The translations under genes were made by a program, and so were the position numbers. 64,000 bases of DNA from Candidatus Vogelbacteria bacterium (GTDB lineage: Bacteria > Patescibacteriota > Minisyncoccia > Phycocordibacterales > XYD1-FULL-46-19), in NCBI GenBank assembly GCA_903878275.1, contig CAIRHC010000002.1, forward strand, positions 29,218-93,217, read 5' to 3'. The notes under the pieces were generated by a model, which ran no database searches, was not told the origin of the DNA, and was given only the letters and a program-made list of their open reading frames with translations. How positions within the stretch are numbered: position 1 is the stretch's first letter; every line of letters starts with the position of its first letter. Of this stretch, positions 6,256 through 29,641 are shown in pieces.

Positions 6256-6284
6256 GTAGCCGATTCGTCCAGCTCAATCCAAGA

Positions 6285-8631: not shown

Positions 8632-8642
8632 CACCATACTAT

Positions 8643-8672: not shown

Positions 8673-8707
8673 AGCTAGAATTGTAACCAAACGGAAAGGA
8701 GAGTTTT

Positions 8708-8956
8708 ATGCCAAAAAATAAAGAACCTTGGTGGGTTCACGTGTTTTCGATACTAGCTTGTCTGGGCGTTATGGGTGGTTTTTGTCTCCTAGCTATGGCA
8801 CCAGGAATTATCTGGTTGATTAGTATGGTGATGATATACCACCTTACTGGTAGTGCCTCACTCACAGCAGTTTATGCCATATTCGCAGGCATACTAGTAA
8901 TTGTGGTCTTTACATTCCTGTCCCGGAAGTTTCAGGAATGGGGCATAGACCACTAA
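8708..8956 (+). CDS. small membrane protein (82 aa, 2-3 TM)
   Basis: ORF with a strong RBS; hydrophobic. Confidence 0.5.
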   Translation: MPKNKEPWWVHVFSILACLGVMGGFCLLAMAPGIIWLISMVMIYHLTGSASLTAVYAIFAGILVIVVFTFLSRKFQEWGIDH

Positions 8957-8964
8957 TTAGTTTT

Positions 8965-9005
8965 GACCCGTCGGACGCCTCGCGTCCGACGGGTCCTTTT
9001 GTTTT
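8965..9005 (+). terminator. rho-independent terminator
   Basis: Perfect 14-bp stem gacccgtcggacgc/gcgtccgacgggtc followed by a T-run. Confidence 0.7.
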
Positions 9006-9035
9006 AATCAAACTTTGTTAAGATTAGAGTTAATT

Positions 9036-10481
9036 ATGAATCCTCAAGAAATAGTCAGCTTAATAAAAAACCCAAGCGCCAAAGACCGGGCTTTAATCGA
9101 AAAAGCTTTTTACTTTGCCGAGAAAGCGCATTTGGGTCAAAAAAGATTTTCTGGCGAACCATACCTCATTCACCCATTCAATACGGCTCTCATTTTGGCA
9201 GAATTTAAAGCCGACACCGAAACAATTGTTGCTGGTTTGCTGCACGATACAATTGAAGATACACCGATAACCAGAGAAGATATTGTCCGTGAATTTGGTT
9301 CGACGGTCGCTTTTATGGTGGATGGTGTAACCAAACTCGGGCAATTAAAATATCAAGGCGCCAAAAGACATACCGAAAGTTTGCGAAAATTATTCGTGGC
9401 AATGGCAGAAGATATCCGCATTATTTTAATTCGTCTTGCCGACCGCTTACACAATGTCCGAACGCTACAATACGTCTCACCCGAAAAACAAAAACGGATC
9501 GCGGTAGAAACTTTGGAAATTTATGCTCCCCTTGCCAACCGTCTCGGTATTTGGCGCTTGAAGGGAATGCTGGAGGATGCCAGTTTTCCTTATGCTTATC
9601 CGACGCAATACAAAAAAGTTGTCGAGCTTCGAAAAACCAAAGGTAAAGAATCGGCTAAAAGTTTACAAAAAGTTTATCGAATTTTGCAAAAAGAAATTAC
9701 CAATCGTGGCTTAGATAATTTCGAAATCGATTACCGTATTAAATATTTGTATAGTCTTTACACGAAGCTTCTACGAAAGAAAATGAATATCGATGAGATT
9801 TATGATATCTCGGCGCTGCGGGTGATTGTTGAAAATATTGAAGAATGTTATCAAGTCCTCGGAATTATTCACAGCGTCTGGCGGCCAATTCCCGGTCGGC
9901 TGAAAGATTATATTGCCAACCCGAAACCAAACGGCTATCAAAGTATTCATACCGCTGTTTTCATCGGCGATGGCACTATTGTAGAAATTCAAATTCGCAC
10001 CAGACAAATGCAACACGAAGCTGAATATGGTATCGCTTCACACATTTATTATGACGAATCAGGCAAACCAAAAATCGGCGGAAAGCTAACCAAAAATATG
10101 TCTTGGATCAAAGAACTAATTGATTGGCAAAAACAAGTCAGTAGTGATGGTGTCGATTTTGTCGGGGAATTAAAAGATCGTTTTTTTCACGACCGGATTT
10201 TCGTTTTTACGCCAAAAGGTGAAGTTGTCGAATTACCAAAAGAAGCCACGCCGATCGATTTTGCTTACGCCATCCACTCCGACATCGGCAGTCACGCTTC
10301 TGGTGTGAAGGTCAACGGCAAAATGTCTACTCTTGATAAACTTTTAAAAAACGGTGATATGGTTGAAATCTTAGTCAGCAAAAATAGCGAGCCAAGAGCC
10401 AAATGGGCAGATACAGCCAAGACGACCGATGCTAAAAGGCATATCAAGAGTTTTCTGGCGACCAAGAAAAAGGCTGGGTAA
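9036..10481 (+). CDS. short RelA/SpoT-family (p)ppGpp synthetase/hydrolase (HD, synthetase and TGS domains; no ACT domain)
   Basis: The HD motif HLGQKR...HPFNTALIL...LLHDTIEDT, a RelA/SpoT synthetase-domain motif (ALRVIV...GRLKDYIANPKPNGYQSIHTAV) and a TGS domain (IFVFTPKGEVVELP). Confidence 0.85.
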   Translation: MNPQEIVSLIKNPSAKDRALIEKAFYFAEKAHLGQKRFSGEPYLIHPFNTALILAEFKADTETIVAGLLHDTIEDTPITREDIVREFGSTVAFMVDGVTKLGQLKYQGAKRHTESLRKLFVAMAEDIRIILIRLADRLHNVRTLQYVSPEKQKRIAVETLEIYAPLANRLGIWRLKGMLEDASFPYAYPTQYKKVVELRKTKGKESAKSLQKVYRILQKEITNRGLDNFEIDYRIKYLYSLYTKLLRKKMNIDEIYDISALRVIVENIEECYQVLGIIHSVWRPIPGRLKDYIANPKPNGYQSIHTAVFIGDGTIVEIQIRTRQMQHEAEYGIASHIYYDESGKPKIGGKLTKNMSWIKELIDWQKQVSSDGVDFVGELKDRFFHDRIFVFTPKGEVVELPKEATPIDFAYAIHSDIGSHASGVKVNGKMSTLDKLLKNGDMVEILVSKNSEPRAKWADTAKTTDAKRHIKSFLATKKKAG

Positions 10482-10483
10482 AA

Positions 10484-10520
10484 ATACCGCTCGAGGCTTG
10501 CCTCGAGCGGTATTTTATTT
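10484..10520. terminator. bidirectional rho-independent terminator between convergent genes
   Basis: ataccgctcgagg-cttg-cctcgagcggtat, flanked by an A-run and a T-run. Confidence 0.7.
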
Positions 10521-10522
10521 TT

Positions 10523-11506
10523 TTATAGTGAAAAATTTTTAATAAAATAAAGATTTTCGTCTTCGTCTACTTTTTCGGGCTGGTTAAAACCAAGTCGTTC
10601 CGCTTCGGCAAAACTTTCTGGCAAAGCCGGCCTGTCTTCTTCTGGCACCAAACCGGTAATTTCTAAAATCGAATTGGCTTCATTCTTATACATCATCTCC
10701 AAAATTTTTCGCAAATCTTCGATGGAAGCATAGTCGATCGAAATCCGTCCACCCTTGTCTCTTTTTTCCACCTTAACTCGGTTGCCATATTTTTCGGTCA
10801 GCTTTTCCTCCATTTCAATAATGTCTGGCTCCACCATTGATTCTTTTCGACGGACTTTGTCATAAGCAATTCGCCGAGCAATTGCTTCGACTTCGCGCAC
10901 GGTCAAACGCTTTAGTAAGGTTTCTTTAAAAATTGTCGATTGTTCTTCGGGCCGATCGCCAAGCATCAAAAGTGGTCGGGTGTGACCTTCACTAATTTGA
11001 CCGGTTGTCAAAGCGTCCAAAATTTCTTGCGGCAAATTCATAATGCGAATAGTATTGGAAACAAACTCGCGACTTCGCCCAATTCTTTTGGCAACATCAG
11101 AATGAGTCAAATCAAATTCTTTAACCAAGCGACAAAAAGCTTGAGCCCGATCGACAGGATTCAAATCTTCACGTTGAAGATTTTCGATAATCGCCAACTC
11201 GAGCTTCATCTTGTCGGTTTGTTCGCCACTACGAATTATCGCCGGCACCTGATACAGACCAGCCAGTTTAGACGCTCGCCAGCGTCGTTCGCCCGCGATA
11301 ATTTCGTATTCGCTAAAAAAACTGCCATCCTCGCGTTCAATTTCTTTGCGTGTCACCACGAGTGGTTGCAACACACCATATTGTTTAATCGAATCAGCCA
11401 GATCACGCAAACGATCCTCGTTAAATTCATTGCGAGGCTGAAAAGGATTGGGTTTGATTTTCTCAACCTCAATCAAAAATATTTTATCTTCAAATTCATT
11501 AGCCAT
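10523..11506 (-). CDS. parB: ParB/Spo0J-family partition protein
   Basis: ParB N-terminal box (KIKPNPFQPRNEFNEDRLRDLADSIKQYGVLQPLVV, IIAGERRWRASKLAG) followed by an HTH. Confidence 0.8.
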   Translation of the reverse strand: MANEFEDKIFLIEVEKIKPNPFQPRNEFNEDRLRDLADSIKQYGVLQPLVVTRKEIEREDGSFFSEYEIIAGERRWRASKLAGLYQVPAIIRSGEQTDKMKLELAIIENLQREDLNPVDRAQAFCRLVKEFDLTHSDVAKRIGRSREFVSNTIRIMNLPQEILDALTTGQISEGHTRPLLMLGDRPEEQSTIFKETLLKRLTVREVEAIARRIAYDKVRRKESMVEPDIIEMEEKLTEKYGNRVKVEKRDKGGRISIDYASIEDLRKILEMMYKNEANSILEITGLVPEEDRPALPESFAEAERLGFNQPEKVDEDENLYFIKNFSL

Positions 11507-13184: not shown

Positions 13185-13281
13185 GCGGGCTTTCTACTTG
13201 GATTTACGAACTATCAAGTTACTATGATGATATCAAGATCGGACTTGAAAAGCTAGAAAAGGCTGCTACCTCAGCTTTTAG

Positions 13282-13938
13282 TTAGTCTTCTTGAACAAAA
13301 TAATCAATCTTAGTCTTACTTCCATCTAAAACTGGATCATCGAAAGAGAATTTTTGAAGCGGAACTAGCCCACGACCAGAATATTCCAATGTTCGATACA
13401 GATAACCAAGAAAACAACCAGTATAGCGATAACGACGGATACAACCCTCGATATTAGCCTGAATCCGATCATCATAGCCTCGCCAGTGAGCAAAAGTTGA
13501 ATATCTATCGATCCACTCCTCAATAACGTAACTAAGCCAGTGGCAAAGCTCCTGCTGGGCCAAAAGATTGCCCTTTTGGGCAATTCGGACCAACGATATG
13601 ATAATTTGCTCCAGTCTTCGCTTATCAGCGTTGGTGATTGGCGCCATTAGCACATAAAGCTTTGGTCTGTGACGATTAATAACCAGATCGACCTCAACTT
13701 TATCTTCATACTTTTTAGCCACTTTGCCTTGATAGTAGACCCAGCGTTTCTGAAAAGGTCGATCAAGTCGGTAAGTAACTCGATCCCAATCAATCTGATT
13801 ATTTTCGGTCCTAAGATTCAACCTGACAAAACGATAGACTCGTGGAGCATTAGCTAAAACCCAAGTGCTACTAAATTTGTCTGGTTTCTTTGTTTTTAGT
13901 TGTTTATTAAGAATACTAACAGCTTGCTTGAGATCCAT
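13282..13938 (-). CDS. hypothetical protein, last gene of the RiPP-like operon
   Basis: 218-aa ORF placed 21 nt downstream of the C39 peptidase gene on the same strand. Confidence 0.4.
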   Translation of the reverse strand: MDLKQAVSILNKQLKTKKPDKFSSTWVLANAPRVYRFVRLNLRTENNQIDWDRVTYRLDRPFQKRWVYYQGKVAKKYEDKVEVDLVINRHRPKLYVLMAPITNADKRRLEQIIISLVRIAQKGNLLAQQELCHWLSYVIEEWIDRYSTFAHWRGYDDRIQANIEGCIRRYRYTGCFLGYLYRTLEYSGRGLVPLQKFSFDDPVLDGSKTKIDYFVQED

Positions 13939-13958
13939 CTTTCTTTCGTCGTCTAAAG

Positions 13959-14471
13959 CTAATTATTTTTGTAGATCGCAATAATCTGTCTAATAATTAA
14001 TTCGTCAGGTTTAATCGTCTCTCCAGTAAAATCAAACCAGACTTTTAGAAAATCCTTTCTTTTAATTTTTCTTTCGCCACCAATTTCAGGATCTTGTAGA
14101 TAGATATACTCATCATCGAGGCCACCTACAACTGAATAATGACCGTCGGCAACTTCTGAATCATCATAATCTTGTCGGCCACGGGTAAACCAGTCGACAA
14201 TAACCGGAACACCTTTCTCTAGCCATTTCTCAATATCTTCAAAACTGCTTTCGTTTTTTATTTCAGCTTTGAATCCTAACGATTCCGCTACTCTTACAAT
14301 ATCTTTATCGTTAATACCCAGCTCTGGATCTAAACCAGCCAGATCGGCCAGTTCTTTTTCTGTCTTCTCAACTCCGTAATAATCGAGAACAATTTTCAGT
14401 GAAGCTGGCCCGCACATTCCAGCGTGTAGGGTTTCTTGAAAATATTTTGTGTTTAATAATATTTTATTCAT
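13959..14471 (-). CDS. stand-alone C39-like (papain-fold) peptidase, a candidate leader peptidase
   Basis: The catalytic Cys sits in MCGPASLKIVLDYYG, the His in ADGHYSVVGG and the Asp in YLQDPE. Its start overlaps the stop of the upstream gene by 8 nt. Confidence 0.65.
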   Translation of the reverse strand: MNKILLNTKYFQETLHAGMCGPASLKIVLDYYGVEKTEKELADLAGLDPELGINDKDIVRVAESLGFKAEIKNESSFEDIEKWLEKGVPVIVDWFTRGRQDYDDSEVADGHYSVVGGLDDEYIYLQDPEIGGERKIKRKDFLKVWFDFTGETIKPDELIIRQIIAIYKNN

Positions 14472-15183
14472 AGAATTTTAAACTTTCTTTTATAAAGTTT
14501 TTTATATCACCATTGTTTTGGTCCCAAAGATTTTGGATTTTAACTAGTTTTTCTTTTAATCCAGGATAAAATAATTGCTCTGGTCTTCTTATTATCGCTT
14601 GAAGTTGTGGCAAGTTTAAAATAATAACATTAAAAATCTCGGATAATTCCCAAAGTGGACCATTGTTTTTACTTAAGTCTTTTGTCTCTTCAATAAACTG
14701 ACCACAATAATCAAAAAAGGCGAAGTGAAGAGATTCGTGAAAAGCTACCTCGGCCTTACCCAATAAGTCTTTTTTATAAAAAACCTGAAAGGTCTGGTCC
14801 TCAATATATCGTGGATTACAATTAAAAATTGAGAGGTAGCCAGTGTACTCTTTCCCCAAAAAATCTAAGCTGAAAATCTTTCTTAATTCGGCAAAAAATA
14901 ATTGTTGATTTTGATTAAGATAATCGTTTATTTCCTGAATATTTTTCTCTAACAAATCGTTATTCGTTAAGTAAAAATTATCAATATACTGTTGGTAATT
15001 ATTCCCGTCTATTTCCGGATGGTCCTTTTTTATCTTTTCGCTAAAATCAATACCGGCAACTTTAAAATCCTTAAAATCATTAAAGACTTCGTAGTCCAGT
15101 TCTTTATTTAATCTTATTGTAATCATTGTTAAATAATAGAACCCCCGAGCCATTAAGGCAAGGGGGTTCAAGGTCTTCAACAA
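14464..15183 (-). CDS. hypothetical protein (239 aa) between the rSAM gene and the C39 peptidase gene
   Basis: ORF that is translationally coupled to both neighbours. Confidence 0.4.
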   Translation of the reverse strand: MLKTLNPLALMARGFYYLTMITIRLNKELDYEVFNDFKDFKVAGIDFSEKIKKDHPEIDGNNYQQYIDNFYLTNNDLLEKNIQEINDYLNQNQQLFFAELRKIFSLDFLGKEYTGYLSIFNCNPRYIEDQTFQVFYKKDLLGKAEVAFHESLHFAFFDYCGQFIEETKDLSKNNGPLWELSEIFNVIILNLPQLQAIIRRPEQLFYPGLKEKLVKIQNLWDQNNGDIKNFIKESLKFYE

Positions 15184-15185
15184 GT

Positions 15186-16604
15186 CTAGAGTCTGTCAAA
15201 CAGGTCCCAGACCAGCCATTCGAGAGTCTTGAGAGAATGCACGCAGAAGCGGTCATCGATAGACCAGATACTTCCGTTTCTTAGCCAAGCTCCATAGGCG
15301 CATCCTCCGCCACAGATACCGATTGCTGGGCAGTCGAAGCACTGGGGCATGTTTAAGGGTGTTCGTTGTTTCCAGTCTTGAACCAGGGGCTCATCGTGAA
15401 AACGAAAATCCTTGGAGACTTGGCCAAAGAAGAAACACTTGGCCCCAATGCCTTCGTGACAGAGTCCAAGCCGACCATCTGGCGAACAAACGATTTGCGC
15501 GCCTGTTGCTTGACAATCGGCTACATGAATCGTTTTGCCGATGAAGGCTTTGACCTTACGCATGATTCGATCTTCGTAGATACCCGCCTCTCTCGCCAGA
15601 ATGAAATACTCGAGCATTCGACGAGACACCTTTGTCATGTACCGGTGGCTGATTCGTCTTTCGCTGGTGTCCAAAAGCGGATTGAGGTTTATTGCCGAGA
15701 CACCACAGTCTTGGCCGACAGCAATAAGTTCGGGCAGTCGATCGATGTTGTGTTGGTCAATAGTGCAAGAGAACGAAAGATCCTTGCGACCACTGATTTT
15801 ACTCAACAGTTCGAATCCTCTCTCGACTTGATCGAAAGACCCGTTGCCATCAACCGTAATTCTCATCTGGTCGTGAACCATTGCTGGCCCGTCAAGAGAG
15901 ATCCCGATGTTGATATCCTTATGCTCGCCAAAGAATTGCGCCATCTCCTCATTGATGACCGTCCCATTCGTCACAATCGAGAACCGAAATCCCGTGCCAA
16001 GTTCTTTAAGCTCCGCACGATATTTCTCTTTGGTATATTCGATGACTCGCTTAACGATCGGGAAATTCAACAATGGCTCGCCACCGTAGAATATAATCGT
16101 CTTAACGAAATCATCGAACTCTGGAGGATTTCTCGAGATGTTAGAGAAGAACATGTCGATCGCTTCTCTGGCTGTTTCCCAGCTCATGGAAGAGCAGGGG
16201 TAATCGCTTGGCATGTTGTTGTTGATGAAGCAGTAACGGCAACGCAAATTACAAATATCCGTTACTAACAAATACATTGTCTCAAGACCGACAGGAAGCA
16301 CATACTTCTCGCGTTTACGGTCCAGCAGGTCTTGATCGTTTTGCCTCGTCTCAACAACTATTCCGGTTTGGCACAGCTCGTCAATAACTGACAGAACTTC
16401 CTCAGCTGGCACACCAGCAAGACCGTGGGTGATTTTTTCCCTCGTCGCCCCAACTCGAAGCATCGCTACCAACTTCTTGAACTTGTTCTCAAGAAAGAGG
16501 GTCTCGATATTAAGAGAATGATAAACGGCGAAGAAATCGACACCTTTTTTCTTGATGATGTGTGCCCACCGAGACAACCTTAGGGCGTTTTCGCCGTGTT
16601 GCAT
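15186..16604 (-). CDS. radical SAM enzyme with a C-terminal SPASM/twitch domain and a roughly 110-aa N-terminal extension that could be an RRE; a candidate RiPP maturase
   Basis: The CxxxCxxC motif is in TDICNLRCRYCF. The C-terminus has a Cys cluster (CQATGAQIVCSPDG...CFDCPAIGICGGGCAYGAW). GC content is clearly higher than in neighbouring genes. Confidence 0.85.
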   Translation of the reverse strand: MQHGENALRLSRWAHIIKKKGVDFFAVYHSLNIETLFLENKFKKLVAMLRVGATREKITHGLAGVPAEEVLSVIDELCQTGIVVETRQNDQDLLDRKREKYVLPVGLETMYLLVTDICNLRCRYCFINNNMPSDYPCSSMSWETAREAIDMFFSNISRNPPEFDDFVKTIIFYGGEPLLNFPIVKRVIEYTKEKYRAELKELGTGFRFSIVTNGTVINEEMAQFFGEHKDINIGISLDGPAMVHDQMRITVDGNGSFDQVERGFELLSKISGRKDLSFSCTIDQHNIDRLPELIAVGQDCGVSAINLNPLLDTSERRISHRYMTKVSRRMLEYFILAREAGIYEDRIMRKVKAFIGKTIHVADCQATGAQIVCSPDGRLGLCHEGIGAKCFFFGQVSKDFRFHDEPLVQDWKQRTPLNMPQCFDCPAIGICGGGCAYGAWLRNGSIWSIDDRFCVHSLKTLEWLVWDLFDRL

Positions 16605-16671
16605 CTGATTTCTCCTTACCTTAGTTTTGTGGCGGGCCAGGACTAGCCCGACCCGCCACGACTCGCCCTTA

Positions 16672-16791
16672 CTTACTCCTTAATCTTGGGAGCATTGCAA
16701 GAACAACCGCAGGCGCAGACACTGACTGACGCCCTGGCCATGTCGATATTGCCGACAATGGCTTGAAGTTGCGACCGATTGGCCTTCTTCA
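16672..16791 (-). CDS. unannotated 39-aa Cys-rich precursor peptide (MKKANRSQLQAIVGNIDMARASVSVCACGCSCNAPKIKE)
   Basis: ATG at rc 16789-16791 with a consensus SD (AAAGGAGAAA) 6 nt upstream and a TAA stop. It lies 68 nt upstream of the rSAM gene on the same strand. It is absent from the ORF track because it is under 60 aa. Confidence 0.6.
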
Positions 16792-16896
16792 TAGCTTTCT
16801 CCTTTCTAGATCTCAATGATCGGATCCAAAATAACCATACCACGAATATCTAAAGTATTCAAGTGGTCAAAAGAACCAACTTTTATAGATATATTT

Positions 16897-17280
16897 TTAT
16901 CTCCGATCAAAATAATCTTGCACCTTAGCCGCTAGAGCCATCGGGGCTAACTCAGTTTTTCCCCAAAATTCAGTTGCTCCAAGAGCTAGAAACTTTCGCT
17001 TTACTTCTTTTTTATCAAGATTAGTGAAAACAATAACTGGTATATCTTTAGTGGTCGGATCAGCCTTTAATTGCTTTAAAACTTCTTCACCGTCAACACC
17101 CTCCATTACGATATCTAAAACGATAACTTTAGGATGCCAACTCTTGGCTTGCTCAACCCCAATCTTGCCACCATTAGCCATCACGCTAGGAATACCGGCG
17201 ACATCAAAAGCTACTTTGTAAAGATACATTTGATCAGAATCATCCTCAATCATTAAGACTTGTTTTATTTCTTCGGCCAT
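16897..17280 (-). CDS. single-domain response regulator (CheY-like receiver with no output domain)
   Basis: MIEDDSDQ...VLDIVMEGVDGEEVLKQLK...PVIVFTNLD, 127 aa. Confidence 0.8.
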   Translation of the reverse strand: MAEEIKQVLMIEDDSDQMYLYKVAFDVAGIPSVMANGGKIGVEQAKSWHPKVIVLDIVMEGVDGEEVLKQLKADPTTKDIPVIVFTNLDKKEVKRKFLALGATEFWGKTELAPMALAAKVQDYFDRR

Positions 17281-17285
17281 AATAT

Positions 17286-19454
17286 TTATTTTTTAGTTTT
17301 TGGAATAGTAACGATAAATTCAGTGCCTTTACCTTCCTCACTAATGAAAGTAATCGTGCCACCCGGATGAGCCTGAATAACTTCTCTTGTGATAAAAAGA
17401 CCTAAGCCAGAACCATCAGTGTACATATCTACCGCGTTAGTCGCTCGTTCAAACTTACCAAACATCCGCGCTTGATCGTCTTTTGGAATACCGACGCCAG
17501 TATCTTTAACCTTAATGATAATACTTTGAGGATTTTCGTCCAGTAGCATCTCAACCTTACCTTCCTTAGTATATTTAAGAGCATTATCAACCAAATTAAA
17601 GAGAGCTTGTTCAAGATAATCGGGATCAGACTTGATTTGAGGATTGGCTGGATTGGGAATAAAGACTAGTTGTAGCTTCTTTTCATTAGCAAAATTTTGA
17701 CTATCAGCAATCACATCAGCCAACACCTTGTTAAGGTCGACTAGCACGATTCTTTTCTCGACAAAACTAAATTTTTCGGTATCAAATTCAGAGGCTTGGA
17801 GAATATCTCTAATTATCTGGCTAATCTTTAATGATTTTTGATAGATATTATCAATCAAATGATTTTGAGTTTCCTGTGGGACATTCTTTAATGACCCTTC
17901 TCTAAACATTGAGATGGTACCAAAGATAACCGAGATTGGTGTTTTTAATTGATGTGAGGCAATATCTAAAAATTCTGATCTCATCGCCAATAATTTCTTT
18001 AAGTGTTCAGCTTGTTCTTCCAATACTTTCGTTTTATCTTGCAAAGTCATCGTTTGATCATTTACTTTTTGTTTGAGTGTTTTATTAAAATCTTTAACCT
18101 CTTTATACAATTCGGCATTATCAATCGCAATCGCGGCTTGATTTGAAAGCGTCATCAACAATTCTAAATCTTCGACCGTAAATGGGTCGCCAAAAAGTCT
18201 CGGCCCTAAAGCAATCGAACCAATTAATTTTTTGTTATTAACCAATGGTAAACAAACGGAAATATCCATTTTCTTCATTTGCTCAACAATCAGCAAAAGA
18301 TCCTCTGGCTTTTCTTTCAACCGTTCATCAGAAGAAAATAAAGACAGCTCTTCAAGCACAACGGGTCGCTGAGTTTTTTCTAAATATTTAATTAAAGAAT
18401 CTTTTGTTCTGGCTCTCGGATTAAGCATTGTCACTTCAACTTTTTTAATCCCCATAATGTCTTGAATCGTTTTAGTGATCAGGTCAGTAATTTCAACCAA
18501 GTCAGTATGATAAGTTAATTGACCAGCGAGACGACTAATGGTTTCTTGAAAATTGTAGAGGCCGGAAAAGAGGTATTTATTAGCAAAAATTTTCATACCC
18601 TTGTCGACACGATAAAAACCAAAAGCAAAGAGTGGAGCAATTGCTAGACCGATAATCAAGGCTCCGTTGGCAAAAACACCACCAAAAAATTCGTTATAAA
18701 ACCAAGTAAGGAGATAAAAAATCGCATAAGCAAAAAAGGCTACACCGAAATAAACAAAAATTCGGCGGACAACAATTCTAACATCCAAGAGTCGGTAACG
18801 GATAATGGCGTAAACAGTGAATAAAACGTAGGTCGAAGCAAATAAATTACCATAAGGTTTAATTGGGATGTTATACCAAAGAAAGTAATTAGTTGAACCG
18901 CCGACAAGACTAATCGCGATACCTAAAAGAAGATATTTAATCTGGGCTCTTTTAATCGCCGAGGTTTCAGTTTTTAAAGCACGAAATGACAAATAGGCCG
19001 AGTAGGCAGACACTCCAACGAACATCATCAAAAATGGGGCATATGCTATGCCCGGTTTAGGCCAAAAAATAAAACCGGCCAATGGCTCAACGTGATCCAC
19101 CATTAACGGAGTTAATAGTAGCAGGGAAAAAACGACAGACAGAAGATAATTAAGATTTAAAAACTTCTTATATCTCTCTTCAATATTCAAAAAGACCAAA
19201 ACCACTTTTAGATAGGCAACCGGAATCCAAACGGCCCCAAGCATCAATACTCTAGTCCAAAATAAAGCTAAGTCGCTATTACTTTGTTCTGTTTGCCAAA
19301 GAAAATAAAAGAAGCTCCAAAAAGCGACAGAGGCACACCAAAAAGCTAATGATTTATTTAAACGAGCTTTGGGATTTTTGTATAAAACAAAAAAGCCCAG
19401 TAGTAATCCGATCGAAAAATTAATAAGAGCAGTAATTGAGTAATAACTCCACAT
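17286..19454 (-). CDS. sensor histidine kinase (about 8 N-terminal TM helices, then GAF, HisKA and HATPase_c)
   Basis: Hydrophobic N-terminal 290 aa; the H-box is ASHQLKTPISVI; the C-terminal part carries the HATPase_c G-boxes (DTGVGIP...GSGLGL). Confidence 0.8.
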   Translation of the reverse strand: MWSYYSITALINFSIGLLLGFFVLYKNPKARLNKSLAFWCASVAFWSFFYFLWQTEQSNSDLALFWTRVLMLGAVWIPVAYLKVVLVFLNIEERYKKFLNLNYLLSVVFSLLLLTPLMVDHVEPLAGFIFWPKPGIAYAPFLMMFVGVSAYSAYLSFRALKTETSAIKRAQIKYLLLGIAISLVGGSTNYFLWYNIPIKPYGNLFASTYVLFTVYAIIRYRLLDVRIVVRRIFVYFGVAFFAYAIFYLLTWFYNEFFGGVFANGALIIGLAIAPLFAFGFYRVDKGMKIFANKYLFSGLYNFQETISRLAGQLTYHTDLVEITDLITKTIQDIMGIKKVEVTMLNPRARTKDSLIKYLEKTQRPVVLEELSLFSSDERLKEKPEDLLLIVEQMKKMDISVCLPLVNNKKLIGSIALGPRLFGDPFTVEDLELLMTLSNQAAIAIDNAELYKEVKDFNKTLKQKVNDQTMTLQDKTKVLEEQAEHLKKLLAMRSEFLDIASHQLKTPISVIFGTISMFREGSLKNVPQETQNHLIDNIYQKSLKISQIIRDILQASEFDTEKFSFVEKRIVLVDLNKVLADVIADSQNFANEKKLQLVFIPNPANPQIKSDPDYLEQALFNLVDNALKYTKEGKVEMLLDENPQSIIIKVKDTGVGIPKDDQARMFGKFERATNAVDMYTDGSGLGLFITREVIQAHPGGTITFISEEGKGTEFIVTIPKTKK

Positions 19455-19570
19455 AAAAAATATGTTTGATTATTAAAATTATAGCATAATCGTTTATTAA
19501 ACGAAAAATAGCAGTTGCTCGAATGGTTTAGATTCAAGCAACTGCTATTATGTTACGCTTTCTCGTCGGC

Positions 19571-20674
19571 TCAGCGTGTTGCCGTCGCCACAGGGTGAAC
19601 ACCCCACGGCTCAACATAAACCTTGATGTTCTTGCCACCAGCCTTTTCGATGAGTTGACCAAACTCTTCGGGAGTCCGATAGATGATCGGCCAATTGTAC
19701 ATCTTCAAAAGCAGGTTTGCCGCTCTGGTCCGACTCATGTTCGAGATGATGATCTGTCCACCCTCTCTCAAAGAGCCGAGGGCAAACCGAATCAAAGCAA
19801 TCGCGCGGTCGTCTGGCAGATAATCAAGAATGCCACAGGCCTCGACGATGTCGAAACTCTGTTCGGCAAAATGATCCGCCAATTTCAGAAACGAGATCCG
19901 CTCGCAACTGACTTGATCGGCGACTCCCGCTTGTTCCGCTCTCTTAGCGGCTAAAGCCAGAGATTCTTTCCGCACGTCCGTGAGGATCAACTCGACTTTT
20001 TGTCCACGCCCTTTTGCTTTCAGATTGCGCAAGGCGTGAACGATTGGCTGAGCTGACCCACAAGCGATTGACATTGTTCGACCGCCACCAGTTTGTTCAT
20101 AAAGCTTAACAACCTGGCGATAGCGGTTTCTAACTGACTGCGCGTTCGGGCAATCAAGATAGAGATTCGACCACATATCGGGTGGGGCACTGAGCGGATA
20201 AATGGCTTGACTGTCCCACTCGAACGAGCCGATGGCGTTGTAAACATCGTCCAAAGCTTCCGCTTCGGCCGCGTGTTCACAAAAGTCTTGGAGTAGTGGC
20301 GAAGACGCGTTGAAACCGAGAGTTCTCAGTTCAAAGAGCGCCTTCAACCGTTTTGGTCCAAAACTCTGTCTGGCTTGATCGAGGATGCCGTCCTTACCAT
20401 TACCGTTTCCGTTCTCCTCGACGAACGACTCGGGTTGACTGGAAAAGTTCAGAGCGACCCTCAGGGATTTAATCCTGATATATTCGGCCAGTAACCAGCC
20501 GATTGTCCACTCAAAAACAAACCAGAACCACGAACCTTTCTTCTCAAATCCAGCGTGACTAAGCTTGATGATCTCAAAACTTGACCCAACCGAATCTTTT
20601 TCCGCGACCCCCTTATCAATAAGGGAGGCCGTCAGCACCTCAGCGTTGTTGTCCATGACGAAACCTCCTTTCAA
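19571..20674 (-). CDS. class I SAM-dependent methyltransferase with an about 170-aa N-terminal domain of unknown function
   Basis: Motif I-like IACGSAQP and ...LTDVRKESL...DIVEACGILDYL. GC-rich. It is the first gene of the minus-strand array. Confidence 0.55.
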   Translation of the reverse strand: MKGGFVMDNNAEVLTASLIDKGVAEKDSVGSSFEIIKLSHAGFEKKGSWFWFVFEWTIGWLLAEYIRIKSLRVALNFSSQPESFVEENGNGNGKDGILDQARQSFGPKRLKALFELRTLGFNASSPLLQDFCEHAAEAEALDDVYNAIGSFEWDSQAIYPLSAPPDMWSNLYLDCPNAQSVRNRYRQVVKLYEQTGGGRTMSIACGSAQPIVHALRNLKAKGRGQKVELILTDVRKESLALAAKRAEQAGVADQVSCERISFLKLADHFAEQSFDIVEACGILDYLPDDRAIALIRFALGSLREGGQIIISNMSRTRAANLLLKMYNWPIIYRTPEEFGQLIEKAGGKNIKVYVEPWGVHPVATATR

Positions 20675-21890: not shown

Positions 21891-22691
21891 TTATTTACAC
21901 TCCTTATGCAATGTCTTATCCGGATAAGCCTTTAGCAACTCCGCCTCAGAGCTAAAGGTCTTAAGATATTTTGGCGACAAGCCTTTCCACACGGAATCAG
22001 TATCGCAATAATAATATCTCGCTGTTGGGTGAGCGCTAACATAAAAGGTGTGGCCGGTGGTCCCGATTACTGCAGGGCTAGAGGAAGAGACTTTTTGACT
22101 CGCATTTGTTACTTGTTGGCAAGCATTATCAGCCCACAAGCCTACCTTACTCGCCTCAGCTACTTTCTGGGCATTTTTATATTCCGCTTGATACTTGTAA
22201 GGGAGGTCATAGGTATATTCGTGAGCATAGCCTTCTTCAATCATCAACTTATTAAAACTTCGCCCATCAGCCAAATAAACATATCTTAATGTCCGGCCGT
22301 ACTTATCAAGCTCGCCTTGTGATTGATCGCTTTCTAAGCCGACTGATTGGCCTGACAAGAGCTCCTTCGCTTTCGCTGACGCTTCTCGGCCAAAACATTG
22401 AACTGGTTTTCGAGGATCAACCACTTCGGGCGTGTCCATACCAATCAGACGAAGTCTTGTTACTTTGCCGTTAATATCCACATCAATCGTGTCGCCATCA
22501 ACGACTTTGGTTACTCTAAATAACGAGCTTGAAGCGAAATTGCCACTAAGTTGGACATTTGCCACTAATTTTTGACCAAAGTCGCTAGATTGAGGAGATG
22601 GTGATAATTTAGAACTACTTACCGCTAAAACAACAGCGGCAAAAATAAAGATTAAGACTGTGAACCATTTTAAATACTGTTTTTTAAGCAT
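21891..22691 (-). CDS. secreted thermonuclease (staphylococcal-nuclease-like) with a C-terminal extension
   Basis: An N-terminal TM/signal segment, then VVDGDTIDVDINGKVTRLRLIGMDTPE...GRTLRYVYL...EGYAHEY. Confidence 0.75.
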   Translation of the reverse strand: MLKKQYLKWFTVLIFIFAAVVLAVSSSKLSPSPQSSDFGQKLVANVQLSGNFASSSLFRVTKVVDGDTIDVDINGKVTRLRLIGMDTPEVVDPRKPVQCFGREASAKAKELLSGQSVGLESDQSQGELDKYGRTLRYVYLADGRSFNKLMIEEGYAHEYTYDLPYKYQAEYKNAQKVAEASKVGLWADNACQQVTNASQKVSSSSPAVIGTTGHTFYVSAHPTARYYYCDTDSVWKGLSPKYLKTFSSEAELLKAYPDKTLHKECK

Positions 22692-23307
22692 GTTGATTTT
22701 TGTCGTAATAATACTTATTTATACCATGAGCAATCTCTAAAACCTCATTGGCTAAGGCTCTTAAGTTATCTATTTCTTTAGAAAAATCAGACGGACTATA
22801 CCTTTCATCCTTAGTAGATTTCGATCTTAATTTCTTTAAATCTTCTATTACCTTTGAACCATCGCTATCTAAACCCCCCTGAAATTCTAAAAGCTTTTTA
22901 TAACTTTCGATTTTTGTATCAATTTCAATCTCAGAGAACCCCATGTTAAAATAGGAACCCTTGTCACTAATATCCACATGGGCAATTATTTTATTTCTAT
23001 TGATTGTAATTTTATCAATAATGTTTTTATATTTCTTCTCAAAATTACTAATTCTGTCCTTAAAAATTTGAGGTGAGTCTTTTTTTAATTGTTTCAATCC
23101 TGATTTATCGCTCTTTGTCACTGAAATCAACTTTGCCATATCCAAAATAATGGAGTGGATATAGACAAAATCAATATTGTAAAAATCTTTCTTAATATCA
23201 CTTCCTTCTATCTTATTTTGGTAATCATCTAACTTTTTTAAACTGGTGCGACACAAATCATCAATAACCAGCAACAGGTTATAAAAATTTTTGGGGTGTT
23301 TCGTCAT
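22684..23307 (-). CDS. hypothetical protein with an Rx5H motif, possibly a HEPN/Abi-like RNase domain
   Basis: 207 aa, very AT-rich; RNKIIAH matches the HEPN R-x4-6-H pattern. Confidence 0.3.
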   Translation of the reverse strand: MTKHPKNFYNLLLVIDDLCRTSLKKLDDYQNKIEGSDIKKDFYNIDFVYIHSIILDMAKLISVTKSDKSGLKQLKKDSPQIFKDRISNFEKKYKNIIDKITINRNKIIAHVDISDKGSYFNMGFSEIEIDTKIESYKKLLEFQGGLDSDGSKVIEDLKKLRSKSTKDERYSPSDFSKEIDNLRALANEVLEIAHGINKYYYDKNQHA

Positions 23308-23338
23308 CTTTTGTTTATTTCATCGTCCATAGATTTAT

Positions 23339-23533
23339 CTAAATTCTGTTATTCCATCCTTGCCAGATTAAAACGATAGTGAGAATCACTAAAATTACAT
23401 TAAGGACGATAACTACTCGACTTGAAAAGTCGGTTGAATTCTTGAGCCGTCGCATCATTTCGACAGAGGCTCTGCTCGAAGTATTAAGGGTTTGATCGAC
23501 CAACTCATTATCTGTCTTGTTTTTATATTCCAT
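23339..23533 (-). CDS. small protein with a C-terminal TM helix (64 aa)
   Basis: ORF between the Cas4-like gene and the HEPN-like gene. Confidence 0.3.
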   Translation of the reverse strand: MEYKNKTDNELVDQTLNTSSRASVEMMRRLKNSTDFSSRVVIVLNVILVILTIVLIWQGWNNRI

Positions 23534-23541
23534 GGGTATTT

Positions 23542-24291
23542 TTATTTAATTAACTTCGCCCTTTCCTTAGCATAACCACAAAACTCACAATCGATGGTCT
23601 CCTTGGGCATCTTGGCGCGATTAAGGCACTTCTTAATCTTAACCAACTCCGCTTCAATCCAGTCGTCCTTGCCGGTATACGGAAGGACTACGATATCAAA
23701 CTCTACCTTGCCATCAAACGCTTTTCTATCCGTTCGACCATTACAATAGACGAAGTAGCCAATATCGGACACCTTAAAACCATTCTGACGCAGTAGCCAT
23801 TGGTAAATCTCCATTTGGCGCTTATAGCCGTCTTGCCACTCGGCATCAAGATTAACTTCGCTTTCCTTAGCCGTCGCCTTATAATCCACCACGATTAACT
23901 CTTTCTTTTTATTTATCCAGATATCGTCAACCGCCCCAGTGATCAACAGATTGGTCGGTTCATGTAGATAGCGAACACCTTTGAAGTTCTCTCTCCACTC
24001 GTCCATCATTTCATGCTGAAAAGGCACCGCATCAATGCCGTACTGCTTCATTAGCGGATGAGTCGTTTTGTCGGCGCGATGAATATCAAATTCTTTCTTT
24101 AAGAGTGTATCCACTGCCTTGTTAATATTAAAAGGTGGACAGTTTGGTTGTTTAATCCCAAGACGGTTATTTAAGTAGAAACAACAAGGGCAATTAACAA
24201 ACGACTCAATACCACTGCGGCTAATCTTAAATGGCTTGTCGTCTTTGGCTTTAAATAACCCCCGAGATTTTATTTTAAATTCTTTTTTCAT
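23542..24291 (-). CDS. Cas4/RecB-like PD-(D/E)xK nuclease with a four-Cys candidate Fe-S ligand set
   Basis: D...VVDYK core motif; cysteines in CPCC (N-terminal) and CEFC (C-terminal), as in Cas4/AddB nuclease domains. Confidence 0.55.
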   Translation of the reverse strand: MKKEFKIKSRGLFKAKDDKPFKISRSGIESFVNCPCCFYLNNRLGIKQPNCPPFNINKAVDTLLKKEFDIHRADKTTHPLMKQYGIDAVPFQHEMMDEWRENFKGVRYLHEPTNLLITGAVDDIWINKKKELIVVDYKATAKESEVNLDAEWQDGYKRQMEIYQWLLRQNGFKVSDIGYFVYCNGRTDRKAFDGKVEFDIVVLPYTGKDDWIEAELVKIKKCLNRAKMPKETIDCEFCGYAKERAKLIK

Positions 24292-24307
24292 ATTTATTCC
24301 TAGTTCT

Positions 24308-25978
24308 TCAACGTACTTCGACCCTGTCTTTATTAATCCACTTTAAAAATGTTGGTTTTTTATTTTTATTAGATGAGATGAGAAATATTTTCTTCCTAGC
24401 TCTAGTCAAAGCAACAATAAAATTACAGATATCTTGGTCGGAAATATTTTTCTTATCTTTGCCTTTGATAAAATACTGATCATCAAAGTGAGTAATAAAG
24501 ACAATATCAGCGGCCAGACCCTTGGAACTTTGGATAGTAGTGGCTTTTATTGGGATTTTCCTAATTCCCGGATTTCCTCCTTTTAAGGGATTAGACTCGA
24601 TCTCATTTTTTAGGAAGTTTTTTATAATTTCTTTATTTTCAAACCCCATTTTATTTAACAATTGTTCGAGTTCAACGGTATCGACAATTTTATCATTTTT
24701 AATACTACGACAGATCTTTAAGTCTCCATTGATTTCTTTTTTGATATCCTTAGAGACAATTTCGCTAATTGGTTTCGCGTTATCTTTAGCCGTCTCTTTA
24801 ATTAGCCTCTCAAAATCTTCCTTGCTTAAATAATGCTTTACAACAATACGCCAACCAAGATTGCTGCCAATGTGATCCAGAAGGAGTTTAAATCCATCAA
24901 TAATTGTTGGGTCTTCACCACTTTCTTTTTCTGGGTGCTCAATATTACTAAAACCTTTTTTGCGTAAGGCTTCGACGACAGTTTTTGACTGTTTTTTTGT
25001 TGGAGATATTATTAAGACCGAAAATAAACCCTTAACTTCTTCAGCTATCTCACCAATTTTTGTTTGGATATACCATGGGATTTGGCCAGCATACGATTGG
25101 TTATAAATAATGTTAGGGTTTAGTTCGCTCTCCTTGTCTTTCTTCTCATCCGGAAAATATTGATATGGTTTATCAATCCGATTTTTTAATAACCCGTTAT
25201 TCTTGGCGGACAATATCAAATCATTCGTAGCATCGACAATAACCTCGGTACACCGAGAACAATAGGGAAGGCTAAATGGTGCATATTCCGGGCACAAATC
25301 ACCATGCTTGAGTCGTATATAATCAGCGCTGGCACTCTTAAAACCATATAGAGCTTGGTCATCGTCCCCAGCTAACAAGACGGGACTTTTTTCTGAAAGT
25401 AGCTCGATGAGAGAAACTTCTAGTCTATTAAAATCCTGAAATTCATCGACGACAATTTGTTCCCACTTTGGTATTTTTTCTTTTTTAGATTCAAAATATT
25501 TAACCACGGCAAAGATAACATCTGGATACCCATAGTATTTGCCATAAAAGTTCTTTCGCTTCTTGTAAAATTCTAAATCCGTGTTATCGTCGTCACGGTT
25601 ATGAAAAATTTGGTCAAAATCAATGTCTTTTTCTAAAACAATCTTGGCATCTTCTTTTATTACCCGTGGCAGTTTAGGAAAAAGTTTTATCTCATTTTTT
25701 ACCACCTTACTTAACTCACTTCTGGCAAAACTATGGAGAGTTCTAACTTCTGATACACCACAAAGCTCTAGAGATAGTTCCTCTACCAGAGCATTCACAA
25801 AGGTAAGGGTTAGTGTGTCTTTTTTCCCTTTAAGTATCTCTTTAAAAAGATGGGTCTTCCCTGTCCCCGGCCCAGCAACGACAATTTTATGTCTTGAGAT
25901 AGAATTTAAAATTGCGTCAGTATGTTTCTTCCGTTCGGCTTTTGACTTAACATATTTTTCAACATTGTCAGGAATAAT
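24308..25978 (-). CDS. UvrD/Rep-family SF1 helicase with all motifs. There is no ATG/GTG/TTG before its Walker A, and it lies in frame with the upstream ORF across a single TAG.
   Basis: Motif I (IVVAGPGTGKT, about 25853-25885), motif II (IVVDEFQD), motif III (LLAGDDDQALYGF) and motifs V/VI (TIQSSKGLAADIVFI, VALTRARKKIFL). The first codons after the TAG are ATT ATT CCT GAC... Confidence 0.65.
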   Translation of the reverse strand: MIPDNVEKYVKSKAERKKHTDAILNSISRHKIVVAGPGTGKTHLFKEILKGKKDTLTLTFVNALVEELSLELCGVSEVRTLHSFARSELSKVVKNEIKLFPKLPRVIKEDAKIVLEKDIDFDQIFHNRDDDNTDLEFYKKRKNFYGKYYGYPDVIFAVVKYFESKKEKIPKWEQIVVDEFQDFNRLEVSLIELLSEKSPVLLAGDDDQALYGFKSASADYIRLKHGDLCPEYAPFSLPYCSRCTEVIVDATNDLILSAKNNGLLKNRIDKPYQYFPDEKKDKESELNPNIIYNQSYAGQIPWYIQTKIGEIAEEVKGLFSVLIISPTKKQSKTVVEALRKKGFSNIEHPEKESGEDPTIIDGFKLLLDHIGSNLGWRIVVKHYLSKEDFERLIKETAKDNAKPISEIVSKDIKKEINGDLKICRSIKNDKIVDTVELEQLLNKMGFENKEIIKNFLKNEIESNPLKGGNPGIRKIPIKATTIQSSKGLAADIVFITHFDDQYFIKGKDKKNISDQDICNFIVALTRARKKIFLISSNKNKKPTFLKWINKDRVEVR

Positions 25979-29637: not shown

Positions 29638-29641
29638 TTAT

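Follow-up and report, generated by a model that had tools for sequence, protein, structure and literature searches.

A candidate three-gene radical SAM peptide cassette within an eight-gene run of Candidatus Vogelbacteria

Introduction

CPR bacteria (Patescibacteria) combine very small genomes with what is believed to be a life on other cells. In a 64,000-nucleotide stretch of a Candidatus Vogelbacteria genome (hereafter the window), a first-pass annotation described eight closely packed minus-strand ORFs and proposed that together they form one RiPP biosynthetic unit. Each of the eight ORFs is there, and the domain assignments stand. The question is how much of this run is a conserved biosynthetic unit. 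The features, in the direction of transcription, are:

19571..20674, minus strand: class I SAM methyltransferase, 367 aa, with an uncharacterised N-terminal ~180 aa; neighbour
19507..19549, minus strand: terminator-like hairpin between the methyltransferase and kinase genes, 18-bp stem and T-rich tail
17286..19454, minus strand: sensor histidine kinase with 7TM, GAF, HisKA and HATPase domains; facultative neighbour
16897..17280, minus strand: receiver-only response regulator, 5 nt 3' of the kinase gene; facultative neighbour
16673..16792, minus strand: precursor peptide gene, 39 aa, MKKANRSQLQAIVGNIDMARASVSVCACGCSCNAPKIKE, stop codon included in the coordinates; conserved core
16629..16659, minus strand: 13-bp GC-rich hairpin in the gap between the precursor gene and the maturase gene; conserved core
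15186..16604, minus strand: radical SAM/SPASM peptide maturase, 472 aa, with a predicted N-terminal RRE at about residues 1-104; conserved core
14464..15123, minus strand: zincin-like HExxH protein, 219 aa, in an ORF that reaches a TTG at 15183; conserved core
13959..14471, minus strand: stand-alone cytoplasmic C39-type cysteine peptidase, overlapping the HExxH gene by 8 nt; neighbour
13282..13938, minus strand: 218-aa protein, no Pfam entry, with a fold like that of sigma-70 region 2; neighbour

We surveyed the cassette in 60 genome loci and in the contigs that carry close homologues, using tblastn together with ORF scans. Our reading, to which we give a probability of about 0.6, is that the conserved unit comprises three genes and a hairpin: the precursor, the RRE-rSAM-SPASM maturase and the zincin-like HExxH protein. 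The loci that carry it are labelled mostly as Patescibacteria, and it is a real RiPP system, smaller than first claimed. Because it is kept in many lineages of tiny-genome bacteria and has an invariant seven-residue core, the cassette likely matters for CPR biology, in competition, host interaction or signalling. Its small size (a precursor of 32-40 aa and two enzymes) makes it directly testable by heterologous expression.

Literature searches on CPR or Parcubacteria with radical SAM and RiPP returned just a graspetide survey and an unrelated paper. Those on Patescibacteria with ranthipeptide returned BGC surveys only, one of which listed none for the Patescibacteria MAGs it covered.

Results and Discussion

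The precursor peptide is conserved beside the maturase

The small ORF directly 5' of the maturase gene is preceded by a GGAG ribosome-binding site at a distance of 7 nt. It had been placed at 16791..16672, which is out of frame; a shift of one base gives the correct coordinates, 16792..16673. Its proposed role as precursor is supported by its retention beside homologous rSAM genes. Within the clade of at least 45% rSAM identity, 16 of the 19 loci with upstream sequence encode a homologous peptide on the 5' side of the maturase gene, and across cassette loci the precursors range from 32 to 40 aa. The relatives compared share the consensus MKKxxxxQLxxVAG[NK]I-x10-CACGCSC. When precursors were aligned across loci, CACGCSC was invariant while third codon positions differed synonymously; as judged from these alignments, the precursor is shown to be under purifying selection at the protein level. 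A search of the window for the DNA pattern of the Cys core gave a single match, against zero in 100 shuffled versions.

The leader had been likened to the double-glycine type, defined by L(-12)...E(-8)L(-7)xxI(-4)xG(-2)[G/A/S](-1). This holds in part: Gly at -2 is invariant, with L or R at -7 and V, I or L at -4. Position -1, however, is N, K or Q in 16 of 16 peptides and never G, A or S, so that these leaders fall outside the definition.

The maturase is an RRE-containing radical SAM/SPASM enzyme

The predicted radical SAM and SPASM domains were both confirmed. The maturase scored 69 bits against PF04055 (cutoff 29.5), and its CxxxCxxC motif (C118/C122/C125) is invariant in 31 sequences. A SPASM assignment was taken to need a C-terminal seven-Cys motif including CX2CX5CX3C together with a match to TIGR04085. 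The window enzyme has both: TIGR04085 scored 47.3 bits (cutoff 27) across the whole model (1-93 of 93), and seven cysteines (C364, C382, C422-x2-C425-x5-C431-x3-C435 and C454) are invariant in the same number of sequences (31). PF13186, which we take to be the Pfam SPASM model, was absent among the Pfam families reported for the maturase at E <= 0.1, and PF05402, presumably the PqqD model, was absent among those reported. The suggestion that the N-terminal extension is an RRE gained support from a profile of residues 1-104, which matched residues 5-100 of TigE in the PDB (E 7.8e-7). In TigE this region is a crystallographic RRE (PMC10878394).

As anticipated for a peptide-modifying enzyme, the best NCBIfam scores were to peptide maturases, in the order FibroRumin (TIGR04136, 272.4 bits), PapB (169), SCIFF (148) and QhpD (148). 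Each of these fell below its curated cutoff (PapB NF047865, 340; SCIFF TIGR03974, 425; QhpD TIGR03906, 453), as did the anSME model TIGR03942 (98 bits, cutoff 349). The peptide reading of the first-pass annotation has thereby withstood the two outcomes named as fatal to it: an rSAM protein of the anSME or another non-peptide-modifying type with no RRE, and a small ORF not conserved next to homologous rSAM genes. The FibroRumin match runs end to end, pairing residues 11-469 with model positions 2-454 of 458; identity is ~34%. Since 272 bits lies below the cutoff of 400, the maturase is not a FibroRumin member; on these scores it is a sister of that family. A true member at locus L024, used as a control, scored 405.9 bits and has the precursor CPCNCTSCNSCRCDC.

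FibroRumin (TIGR04136 with the precursor model TIGR04135) was defined in silico; a literature search on the name found no papers, and the family is itself uncharacterised. Both families have the RRE, rSAM and SPASM architecture, and FibroRumin precursors are also CxC-rich. The window-type precursor, in contrast, is much shorter (32-40 aa) and carries a single invariant CACGCSC, and TIGR04135 matched neither the window peptide nor that of L013. The FibroRumin loci L022 and L024 also have no HExxH partner, unlike the window cassette.

More than 100 homologues of the maturase were found at 45-77% identity, and the few with an organism name are Patescibacteria. In a scan of IMG/VR the best matches reached 29-36% identity, which gives no sign of a phage-borne cassette. 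A defence-system reading was set aside, as PADLOC gave generic domain matches alone, for example of the rSAM core to pVip.

Proposed chemistry

We propose that the RRE recognises the precursor through its conserved leader (…QLxxVAG[NK]I…) and that 5'-deoxyadenosyl radical chemistry would then cross-link the four cysteines of CACGCSC. By analogy with the closest characterised relatives (CteB/SCIFF, PapB and QhpD), the cross-links would most probably be Cys-S-to-carbon thioethers, and a three-Cys Aux I site could stay open for the substrate thiolate. SCIFF/CteB, PapB (freyrasin) and QhpD share with the window system an RRE, a radical SAM domain, a seven-Cys SPASM domain and Cys-rich substrates. 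They differ in using Asp, Glu or Thr acceptors, which the window core does not have, and the window cassette adds an HExxH partner. SCIFF is a minimal precursor-plus-maturase pair with no known dedicated exporter, and the cassette likewise has no exporter gene.

One possibility is that the maturase catalyses something other than thioether formation, for instance making C-C cross-links, cyclopropanating Val/Ile, oxidising Cys or building a metal-binding motif. The closest solved structure is TigE/TvgB (PDB 8VPO), matched along its whole length, RRE included (155 bits, against 149 for CteB), and TigE is a methyl-cyclopropylglycine synthase (PMC10878394). Because the best PDB match has this activity, the clade is chemically diverse. 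In addition to lacking the Asp, Glu and Thr used as acceptors by PapB, QhpD and CteB, the core is often preceded by Val or Ile in the peptide alignment, and CxCxCxC resembles a metal-binding motif. On the other hand, the GYW motif, which is strictly conserved in the TvgB/TigE cyclopropyl synthases and gives a Tyr ligand to Aux I (PMC10878394), is absent from the window enzyme and from all 38 clade members, and window-type precursors are not Val/Ile repeat peptides. The four cysteines are the sole invariant feature of the core in the peptide alignment, the seven-Cys SPASM domain with its three-Cys Aux I matches the thioether synthase CteB, and the top NCBIfam relatives of known chemistry are thioether formers. 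We therefore regard a non-thioether chemistry as possible though rather doubtful, and keep thioether cross-linking as the preferred reading.

The HExxH protein is the third member of the cassette

The ORF at 15183..14464 had been recorded as an unknown protein. The ORF is present; its start is likely elsewhere. Because homologues begin at the internal Met at 15123, this is most likely the true start of the 239-aa ORF, giving a 219-aa protein that opens with MITIRLNK. A public copy, 100% identical, is annotated at 229 aa and shares its contig with the window's rSAM and C39 proteins. The protein is zincin-like and is a real third member of the cassette: its gene lies downstream of the maturase gene in 17 of the 20 loci with downstream sequence (clade of at least 45% rSAM identity). 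At L014 and L016, both close loci, the surrounding 7-10 kb contain no HExxH gene.

Invariant residues comprise H139, E140 and H143 (HESLH) and E172 (WELSE), a Glu 29 residues downstream. The predicted model (pLDDT 94.7) has a zincin fold, and an HExxH on the active-site helix, a downstream Glu ligand and this fold are what a gluzincin-type metallopeptidase would be expected to show; the assignment is tentative. We propose that the protein is the leader peptidase of the cassette; this cytoplasmic protein would act as a Zn peptidase and trim the leader after cross-linking.

The family is large (~780 clusters at 50% identity), and about half of the homologues sampled from the HExxH side have no adjacent rSAM gene. 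At L230 a homologue 47% identical stands beside an MvdD-type ATP-grasp enzyme and a graspetide-like precursor, a context from which we take the HExxH protein to serve a second RiPP class; other close homologues adjoin an ABC exporter. This agrees with the description of CPR graspetide loci that have metallopeptidases and non-canonical leader cleavage sites (Makarova et al. 2022, PMC8939145). They resemble the window locus in being CPR RiPP loci with metallopeptidases, a likeness that stops short of established identity of family, and differ from it in that the macrocyclising enzyme is an ATP-grasp ligase instead of an rSAM enzyme. Being tied to two RiPP classes gives this unannotated zincin-like family a first functional handle. 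A PDB sequence-profile search with the HExxH alignment found nothing significant, and Pfam searches with ten distant family members gave just sub-threshold hints to SprT-like and DUF5700.

Another possibility is that the HExxH protein is an Fe(II)/α-ketoglutarate-dependent oxygenase, like ChlH, BpmH and PflC, that hydroxylates or oxidatively cleaves the cross-linked peptide. Such domains partner or fuse with rSAM/SPASM RiPP enzymes (PMC12636437). The partner rSAMs of the αKG-HExxH enzymes (ChlB, BpmH, PflC; IPR026337) are FxsB-type cyclophane formers, a type against which the window enzyme scores only 77 bits. The NCBIfam library presumably includes an HExxH-domain model, TIGR04267, which we take to correspond to IPR026337, the family named in PMC12636437; no NCBIfam model matched the window protein at E <= 0.1. 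The invariant downstream Glu suits the third metal ligand of a gluzincin, and close homologues are also encoded next to an ATP-grasp ligase and next to an ABC exporter. Chemistry that depends on O2 and αKG is less likely, too, given that CPR bacteria are mostly fermentative anaerobes lacking a TCA cycle. An oxygenase is thus unlikely, and we retain the leader peptidase as the proposed role.

A hairpin separates the precursor and maturase genes

The GC-rich hairpin behind the precursor gene folds with an MFE of -27.5 kcal/mol (z -2.9). A GC-rich hairpin of 10-13 bp occupies the same site in all 15 other loci tested (16 including the window), with sequences that vary among those 15 and z values of -2.1 to -6.7. 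It is probably an attenuator or an mRNA-stabilising element that sets the precursor:enzyme ratio, and would keep precursor mRNA in excess over enzyme mRNA.

The kinase is a facultative but recurrent neighbour

Upstream of the precursor, the multi-TM GAF kinase and the receiver-only regulator were called correctly at first pass. The kinase carries HisKA_7TM (54.8 bits), GAF (34.1), HisKA (45.4) and HATPase_c (94.2) domains, and the regulator a receiver domain alone (56.3 bits) with no output domain. In L228 a similar kinase, with a multi-TM N-terminus, immediately precedes the cassette; in L017 one with the full 7TM-GAF architecture is one gene away. In L004, L011 and L013 a kinase lies within 10 kb; most loci have none. 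By a rough hand tally, the cassette loci, the C39 loci and the window all have ~1 such kinase per 60-120 kb; given this common background, only immediate adjacency is informative. Adjacency was seen in only 3 of ~35 cassette loci, and no receiver-only regulator stands beside the cassette in the other loci scanned. The link of the kinase to the cassette is facultative but recurrent, and the upstream 7TM-GAF kinase and receiver pair may control or sense the cassette.

The arrangement is reminiscent of agr BDCA and com CDE, in which a multi-TM kinase, a regulator, a small Cys peptide and processing enzymes are likewise adjacent, a likeness at the level of gene content; the window regulator differs in having no output domain. 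It could be speculated that the CACGCSC peptide is a signalling molecule that episymbiotic CPR bacteria make with a minimal cassette and that the recurrent upstream 7TM-GAF kinase senses or controls, an agr/com-like circuit in bacteria of ultra-small size, with a new leader metallopeptidase family shared by rSAM and ATP-grasp pathways. Taken as a whole this is improbable. If true, cross-links among four alternating Cys in a stretch of seven residues would form a topology without described precedent.

The remaining genes do not travel with the cassette

The first-pass annotation assigned all eight genes to one operon, with the C39 protein as leader peptidase, the methyltransferase in tailoring and the 218-aa protein as a further biosynthetic component. 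Spacing is indeed tight over most of the run: 116 nt from methyltransferase to kinase, 5 to the regulator, 104 to the peptide, 68 to the maturase and 62 to the HExxH gene, then the 8-nt overlap with the C39 gene and 20 nt to the 218-aa gene. The HExxH/C39 overlap suggests real co-expression in the window genome. Co-directionality is weak evidence, because the minus strand carries all sizeable ORFs between 13282 and 33381 and GC skew is uniformly negative.

The comparative data argue against the larger unit. The C39, 218-aa and methyltransferase genes are absent from the 30-odd other cassette loci with Cys-rich precursors, including that of a relative 77% identical. Conversely, C39 relatives occupy 76 loci of varied context (43-88% identity, all but one at least 57%), and none of the 75 others has the cassette beside it. 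The 218-aa family, whose named members are Patescibacteria, is widespread in unrelated contexts and has a sigma-region-2-like fold. The methyltransferase lies behind the terminator-like hairpin and is probably a separate transcription unit. Although L(-7), V/I(-4) and G(-2) of the leader are as in double-glycine leaders, the N/K/Q at -1 is not. The region upstream of the peptide-rSAM pair in L017 also encodes methyltransferases, together with a kinase and a Cys…His protein; these methyltransferases, however, are not homologous to that of the window (E 0.27). An eight-gene operon is therefore quite unlikely, and the preferred unit remains the three genes with their hairpin. In CPR genomes, operon-like packing can make a biosynthetic cluster look larger than it is.

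Shared base composition might also seem to unite the genes, as GC3 of the methyltransferase (0.56), peptide and rSAM genes is 0.56-0.63 against 0.37±0.06 for the window. The rSAM gene, however, exceeds the HExxH gene in GC3 in nearly all loci, so its high value is not window-specific. For the same reason we did not rely on the high GC3 of these three genes as a sign of horizontal transfer.

Both enzyme calls themselves stand. The class I SAM methyltransferase matched PF13847 (32.5 bits) and PF13649 (30.9 bits), and an exact look-up of its 367-aa sequence found none on record. The stand-alone C39-like protease matched PF13529 (54.3 bits, cutoff 24) and PF03412 (52.1, cutoff 22), with the catalytic residues Cys20 (CGPASL), His111 (GHYSVV) and Asp127 (LQDP) read from the sequence; PHROGs gave weak endolysin-domain matches for this protein and nothing for the unknowns. 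Gene co-occurrence does not support its role as dedicated leader peptidase, although it could act in trans. The C39 and sigma-like proteins are co-transcription candidates here, drawn from independent, widely distributed families. The C39 gene directly follows a kinase gene in L137 and L108, and in L137 a methyltransferase homologue (25% identity) lies upstream of the kinase-C39 pair. The C39 gene also recurs in a cluster whose ORFs, as judged by eye from their sequences, are lysine-aminomutase-like, ATP-grasp-like and aminotransferase-like.

Gene layout and the extent of the operon

The first-pass annotation had read 13282-20674 as a single RiPP-like operon of eight minus-strand genes. All eight ORFs are present, and profile scans confirmed the domain assignment of each; the coordinates proposed for the peptide gene were out of frame, and the correct ones are 16792..16673.

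Genes of the run, with the basis of each entry in brackets
19571-20674, minus: class I SAM methyltransferase (profile scan)
17286-19454, minus: HisKA_7TM-GAF-HisKA-HATPase kinase (profile scan)
16897-17280, minus: receiver-only regulator (profile scan)
16673-16792, minus: 39-aa peptide (ORF, corrected coordinates)
15186-16604, minus: radical SAM (rSAM) protein (profile scan)
239-aa ORF, minus: probable start Met 15123, 219 aa (homologue starts)
13959-14471, minus: C39-type peptidase (profile scan)
13282-13938, minus: 218-aa ORF

The product of the 239-aa ORF probably begins at Met 15123 and has 219 aa, since its homologues begin at an equivalent MI(K/T)I…LNK. Shared orientation, which had been offered as an argument for an operon, carries little weight because the minus strand holds all sizeable ORFs from 13282 to 33381 and GC skew is negative throughout. 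The methyltransferase and kinase genes are separated by a hairpin of 18 bp that ends in a T-rich tail. A second, terminator-like hairpin (13258-13279) separates the convergent miaA (plus strand, ends 13184) and 218-aa (minus strand, ends 13282) genes and is the 3' boundary of the minus-strand gene run.

GC3 is 0.56-0.63 in the rSAM, precursor and methyltransferase genes, as compared to a mean of 0.373±0.061 over the 39 window ORFs; 15186-16792 and 19571-20674 stand out most from this mean. For the kinase, regulator, HExxH, C39 and sigma-like genes the values are 0.29-0.35. In nearly all related loci as well, GC3 of the rSAM gene exceeds that of the HExxH gene by about 0.1-0.25.

A short precursor gene and its hairpin

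For comparison we queried 60 genome loci encoding rSAM relatives, together with the contigs of the closest homologue, with all window proteins. The result is a genuine RiPP cassette that is smaller than the proposed eight-gene operon: a precursor gene, a hairpin, and the genes for the maturase and for a protein with an HExxH motif (the 239-aa ORF). The clade with rSAM identity of 45% or more includes 19 loci with upstream sequence, and in 16 of them a small ORF lies directly 5' of the rSAM gene. The encoded peptides have 32-40 aa and the pattern MKK(V/A)(S/T)xxQLxxVAG(N/K)I-x10-CACGCSC followed by 0-8 residues. In a codon alignment, the synonymous codons for the core Ala, Gly, Ser and Cys differ between loci while the amino acids are constant; this pattern marks the small ORF as protein-coding and subject to strong purifying selection.

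Behind the precursor gene is a GC-rich hairpin (16629-16659, −27.5 kcal/mol, z −2.9). Hairpins of 10-13 bp, also GC-rich and unrelated in sequence, follow the precursor gene in 15/15 other loci examined. In lantibiotic and other RiPP operons, a structure behind the structural gene increases the ratio of precursor to enzyme transcript, and by analogy we infer that the hairpin here would do the same.

Distant rSAM relatives (30-38% identity) adjoin other CxC-rich peptides (for instance KCGTCACKCACRYN, GGCGCTSCECR and CDCTACGSCRCTPCK), often with more distant HExxH homologues alongside.

The maturase

The rSAM protein combines the CxxxCxxC motif with seven invariant C-terminal cysteines in the canonical SPASM arrangement, and it passes the SPASM model TIGR04085 (47.3 bits, cutoff 27). 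Its top family is the FibroRumin maturase TIGR04136, with which it aligns end to end (272 bits, cutoff 400). PapB, SCIFF and QhpD rank next, all far under their own cutoffs, and the window maturase meets the membership threshold of none of the curated families tested. In L024, whose enzyme is a true TIGR04136 member (406 bits), the precursor is of the TIGR04135 type and an HExxH partner is lacking. The window system is a sister of FibroRumin, which is itself defined in silico.

The earlier assignment as a peptide maturase and not an anSME holds, as the anSME model gives only 98 bits against a cutoff of 349. The suggested N-terminal RRE is also borne out: residues 1-104 alone match the RRE of TigE (E 7.8e-7), whose N-terminal region is a crystallographic RRE (PMC10878394). 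When the PDB was searched with the rSAM family profile, TigE (8VPO) scored 155 bits and CteB (5WGG) 149 bits. None of the 38 clade members contains GYW, the defining motif of cyclopropyl synthases.

By analogy with its relatives, thioether formation is the favoured activity, because Aux I is left with three Cys, as in CteB, and nothing in the core is invariant except the four Cys. Thioether-forming relatives use Asp, Glu and Thr acceptors, whereas the CACGCSC core contains none. The system would work like a minimal cassette of the sacti-/ranthipeptide or SCIFF type.

The HExxH partner

Within the clade of 45% or more rSAM identity, 17 of the 20 loci whose downstream sequence is available encode a homologue of the 239-aa ORF. 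There are 285 close homologues, and in a library of 1.84 billion proteins the family is represented by 777 clusters; its members measure about 220-260 aa and have no sequence match in Pfam, NCBIfam or the PDB. H139, E140, H143 and E172 are invariant in the family alignment. In the confident AF2 model (pLDDT 94.7), β-strands precede long helices that bear both motifs.

Loci with HExxH proteins
L228: 7TM kinase, CQCGCSC peptide, rSAM, HExxH
L229: HExxH, 63-aa peptide, rSAM
L230, 3079-5666: 60-aa graspetide-like precursor, DUF6624, MvdD-like ATP-grasp, HExxH 47% identical to that of the window
L233: ABC exporter and two HExxH proteins

Two further loci (L231 and L232) show neither context. Since two RiPP classes are served, a class-independent job such as leader removal fits the HExxH protein better than that of an rSAM-specific co-catalyst. 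We regard it as a putative leader peptidase, with a probability of about 0.5; that it is an oxygenase seems unlikely. Metallopeptidases have been reported in CPR graspetide loci (PMC8939145), in agreement with a peptidase role.

The L230 precursor, on a metagenome contig, has the leader motif PLMFLF and an acidic C-terminal region with Ser/Thr. Tandem pairs of unlike HExxH proteins occur in L229 (4569-5672; a 141-aa HEMIH protein, then a 223-aa family member) and in L233 (3345-4666; a 212-aa HEIVH protein, then a 221-aa member, with the ABC exporter upstream).

Genes not conserved with the cassette

The eight genes do not form one conserved unit: no other cassette locus encodes C39, the 218-aa protein, the methyltransferase or the receiver. 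They are missing even beside the closest relative (77% identical rSAM), where a TrmB-type regulator and a transposase are found instead. In the closest relatives, an rve-family transposase gene lies immediately 3' of the cassette (L062, 3142-4080; L063, 3320-4258), which hints that the cassette is mobile.

The C39 protein belongs to a highly conserved stand-alone family found in 76 metagenome loci (57-88% identity in all but one); their contexts vary, and apart from the window's own locus none contains the cassette. In one of them (L137), a methyltransferase homologue (25% identity), a 7TM kinase and the C39 gene sit side by side and no cassette intervenes; in another (L108) a kinase gene directly precedes C39. 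The window may therefore hold a cassette sitting within an older methyltransferase/kinase/C39 neighbourhood.

In the commonest C39 neighbourhood (L080, L084, L102 and L103; match ~5.1-7.5 kb), C39 stands at the end of a recurring gene set, named by eye from ORF sequences: a KamA-like (lysine-2,3-aminomutase-type) rSAM, an ornithine-cyclodeaminase-like protein, two ATP-grasp ligases, C39 itself and a class III aminotransferase. The set may encode an independent pathway of CPR bacteria for a small peptide or amino acids.

The 218-aa protein (13282-13938) belongs to a family of >250 proteins with a sigma-70 region-2-like fold and no Pfam entry, whose named members are mostly Patescibacteria. Some members adjoin terminase, serine recombinase, N4/N6 methylase and LexA-like genes (L067-L071). 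The protein could be a sigma factor, either divergent or from a mobile element.

The kinase

The supposed attachment of the kinase to the cassette proved real but optional. In L228 a multi-TM kinase of this type is encoded immediately upstream of the cassette; in L017 (the one locus outside the window in which the full 7TM-GAF architecture was checked) a single gene intervenes. The kinase may regulate production or act as a sensor of the product. Such adjacency recurs in phylogenetically spread loci, yet these are 3 of about 35 cassette loci, window included, and a kinase within 10 kb of the cassette is no commoner than elsewhere.

L017 carries two rSAM/HExxH modules in one genome. The first (1791-4083, minus strand) encodes a distant SPASM rSAM (best NCBIfam match GeoRSP, 119 bits) and a 232-aa HESMH protein; the second (5104-11347) comprises two methyltransferases, the 7TM-GAF kinase, a 189-aa Cys…His protein, a GGCGCTSCECR peptide and an rSAM gene.

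Distribution and genomic setting

We found no description of the cassette in the searchable literature. What is new is an ultra-short precursor family with an invariant CACGCSC, a zincin-like partner that lacks annotation, and the wide distribution of the cassette in Patescibacteria. The few named sources of the rSAM, HExxH and 218-aa homologues and the titles of the genome loci are mostly from this phylum (including Paceibacterota, Taylor-, Moranii-, Staskawicz-, Giovannoni-, Adler- and Azambacteria), which supports the CPR-like host proposed earlier. A few MAGs carry labels such as Hyphomicrobium, Bdellovibrionales and Coxiellaceae, which probably reflect misbinning.

The methyltransferase gene is directly preceded by a defence-island-like run (21891-33381, minus strand), which places the cassette in a variable region. 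It contains an SNase nuclease, an AbiU2/HEPN-like protein (22 bits, short of Pfam's 26.8 cutoff), a PD-(D/E)XK nuclease with a UvrD-like helicase, Shedu SduA, type I restriction-modification genes (R, and M fused to S) and a NucS/PDDEXK-like nuclease. Farther along, at 36819-36938 on the minus strand, is a match to LOOT RNA (Rfam RF03000; 77 bits, gathering score 46.4).
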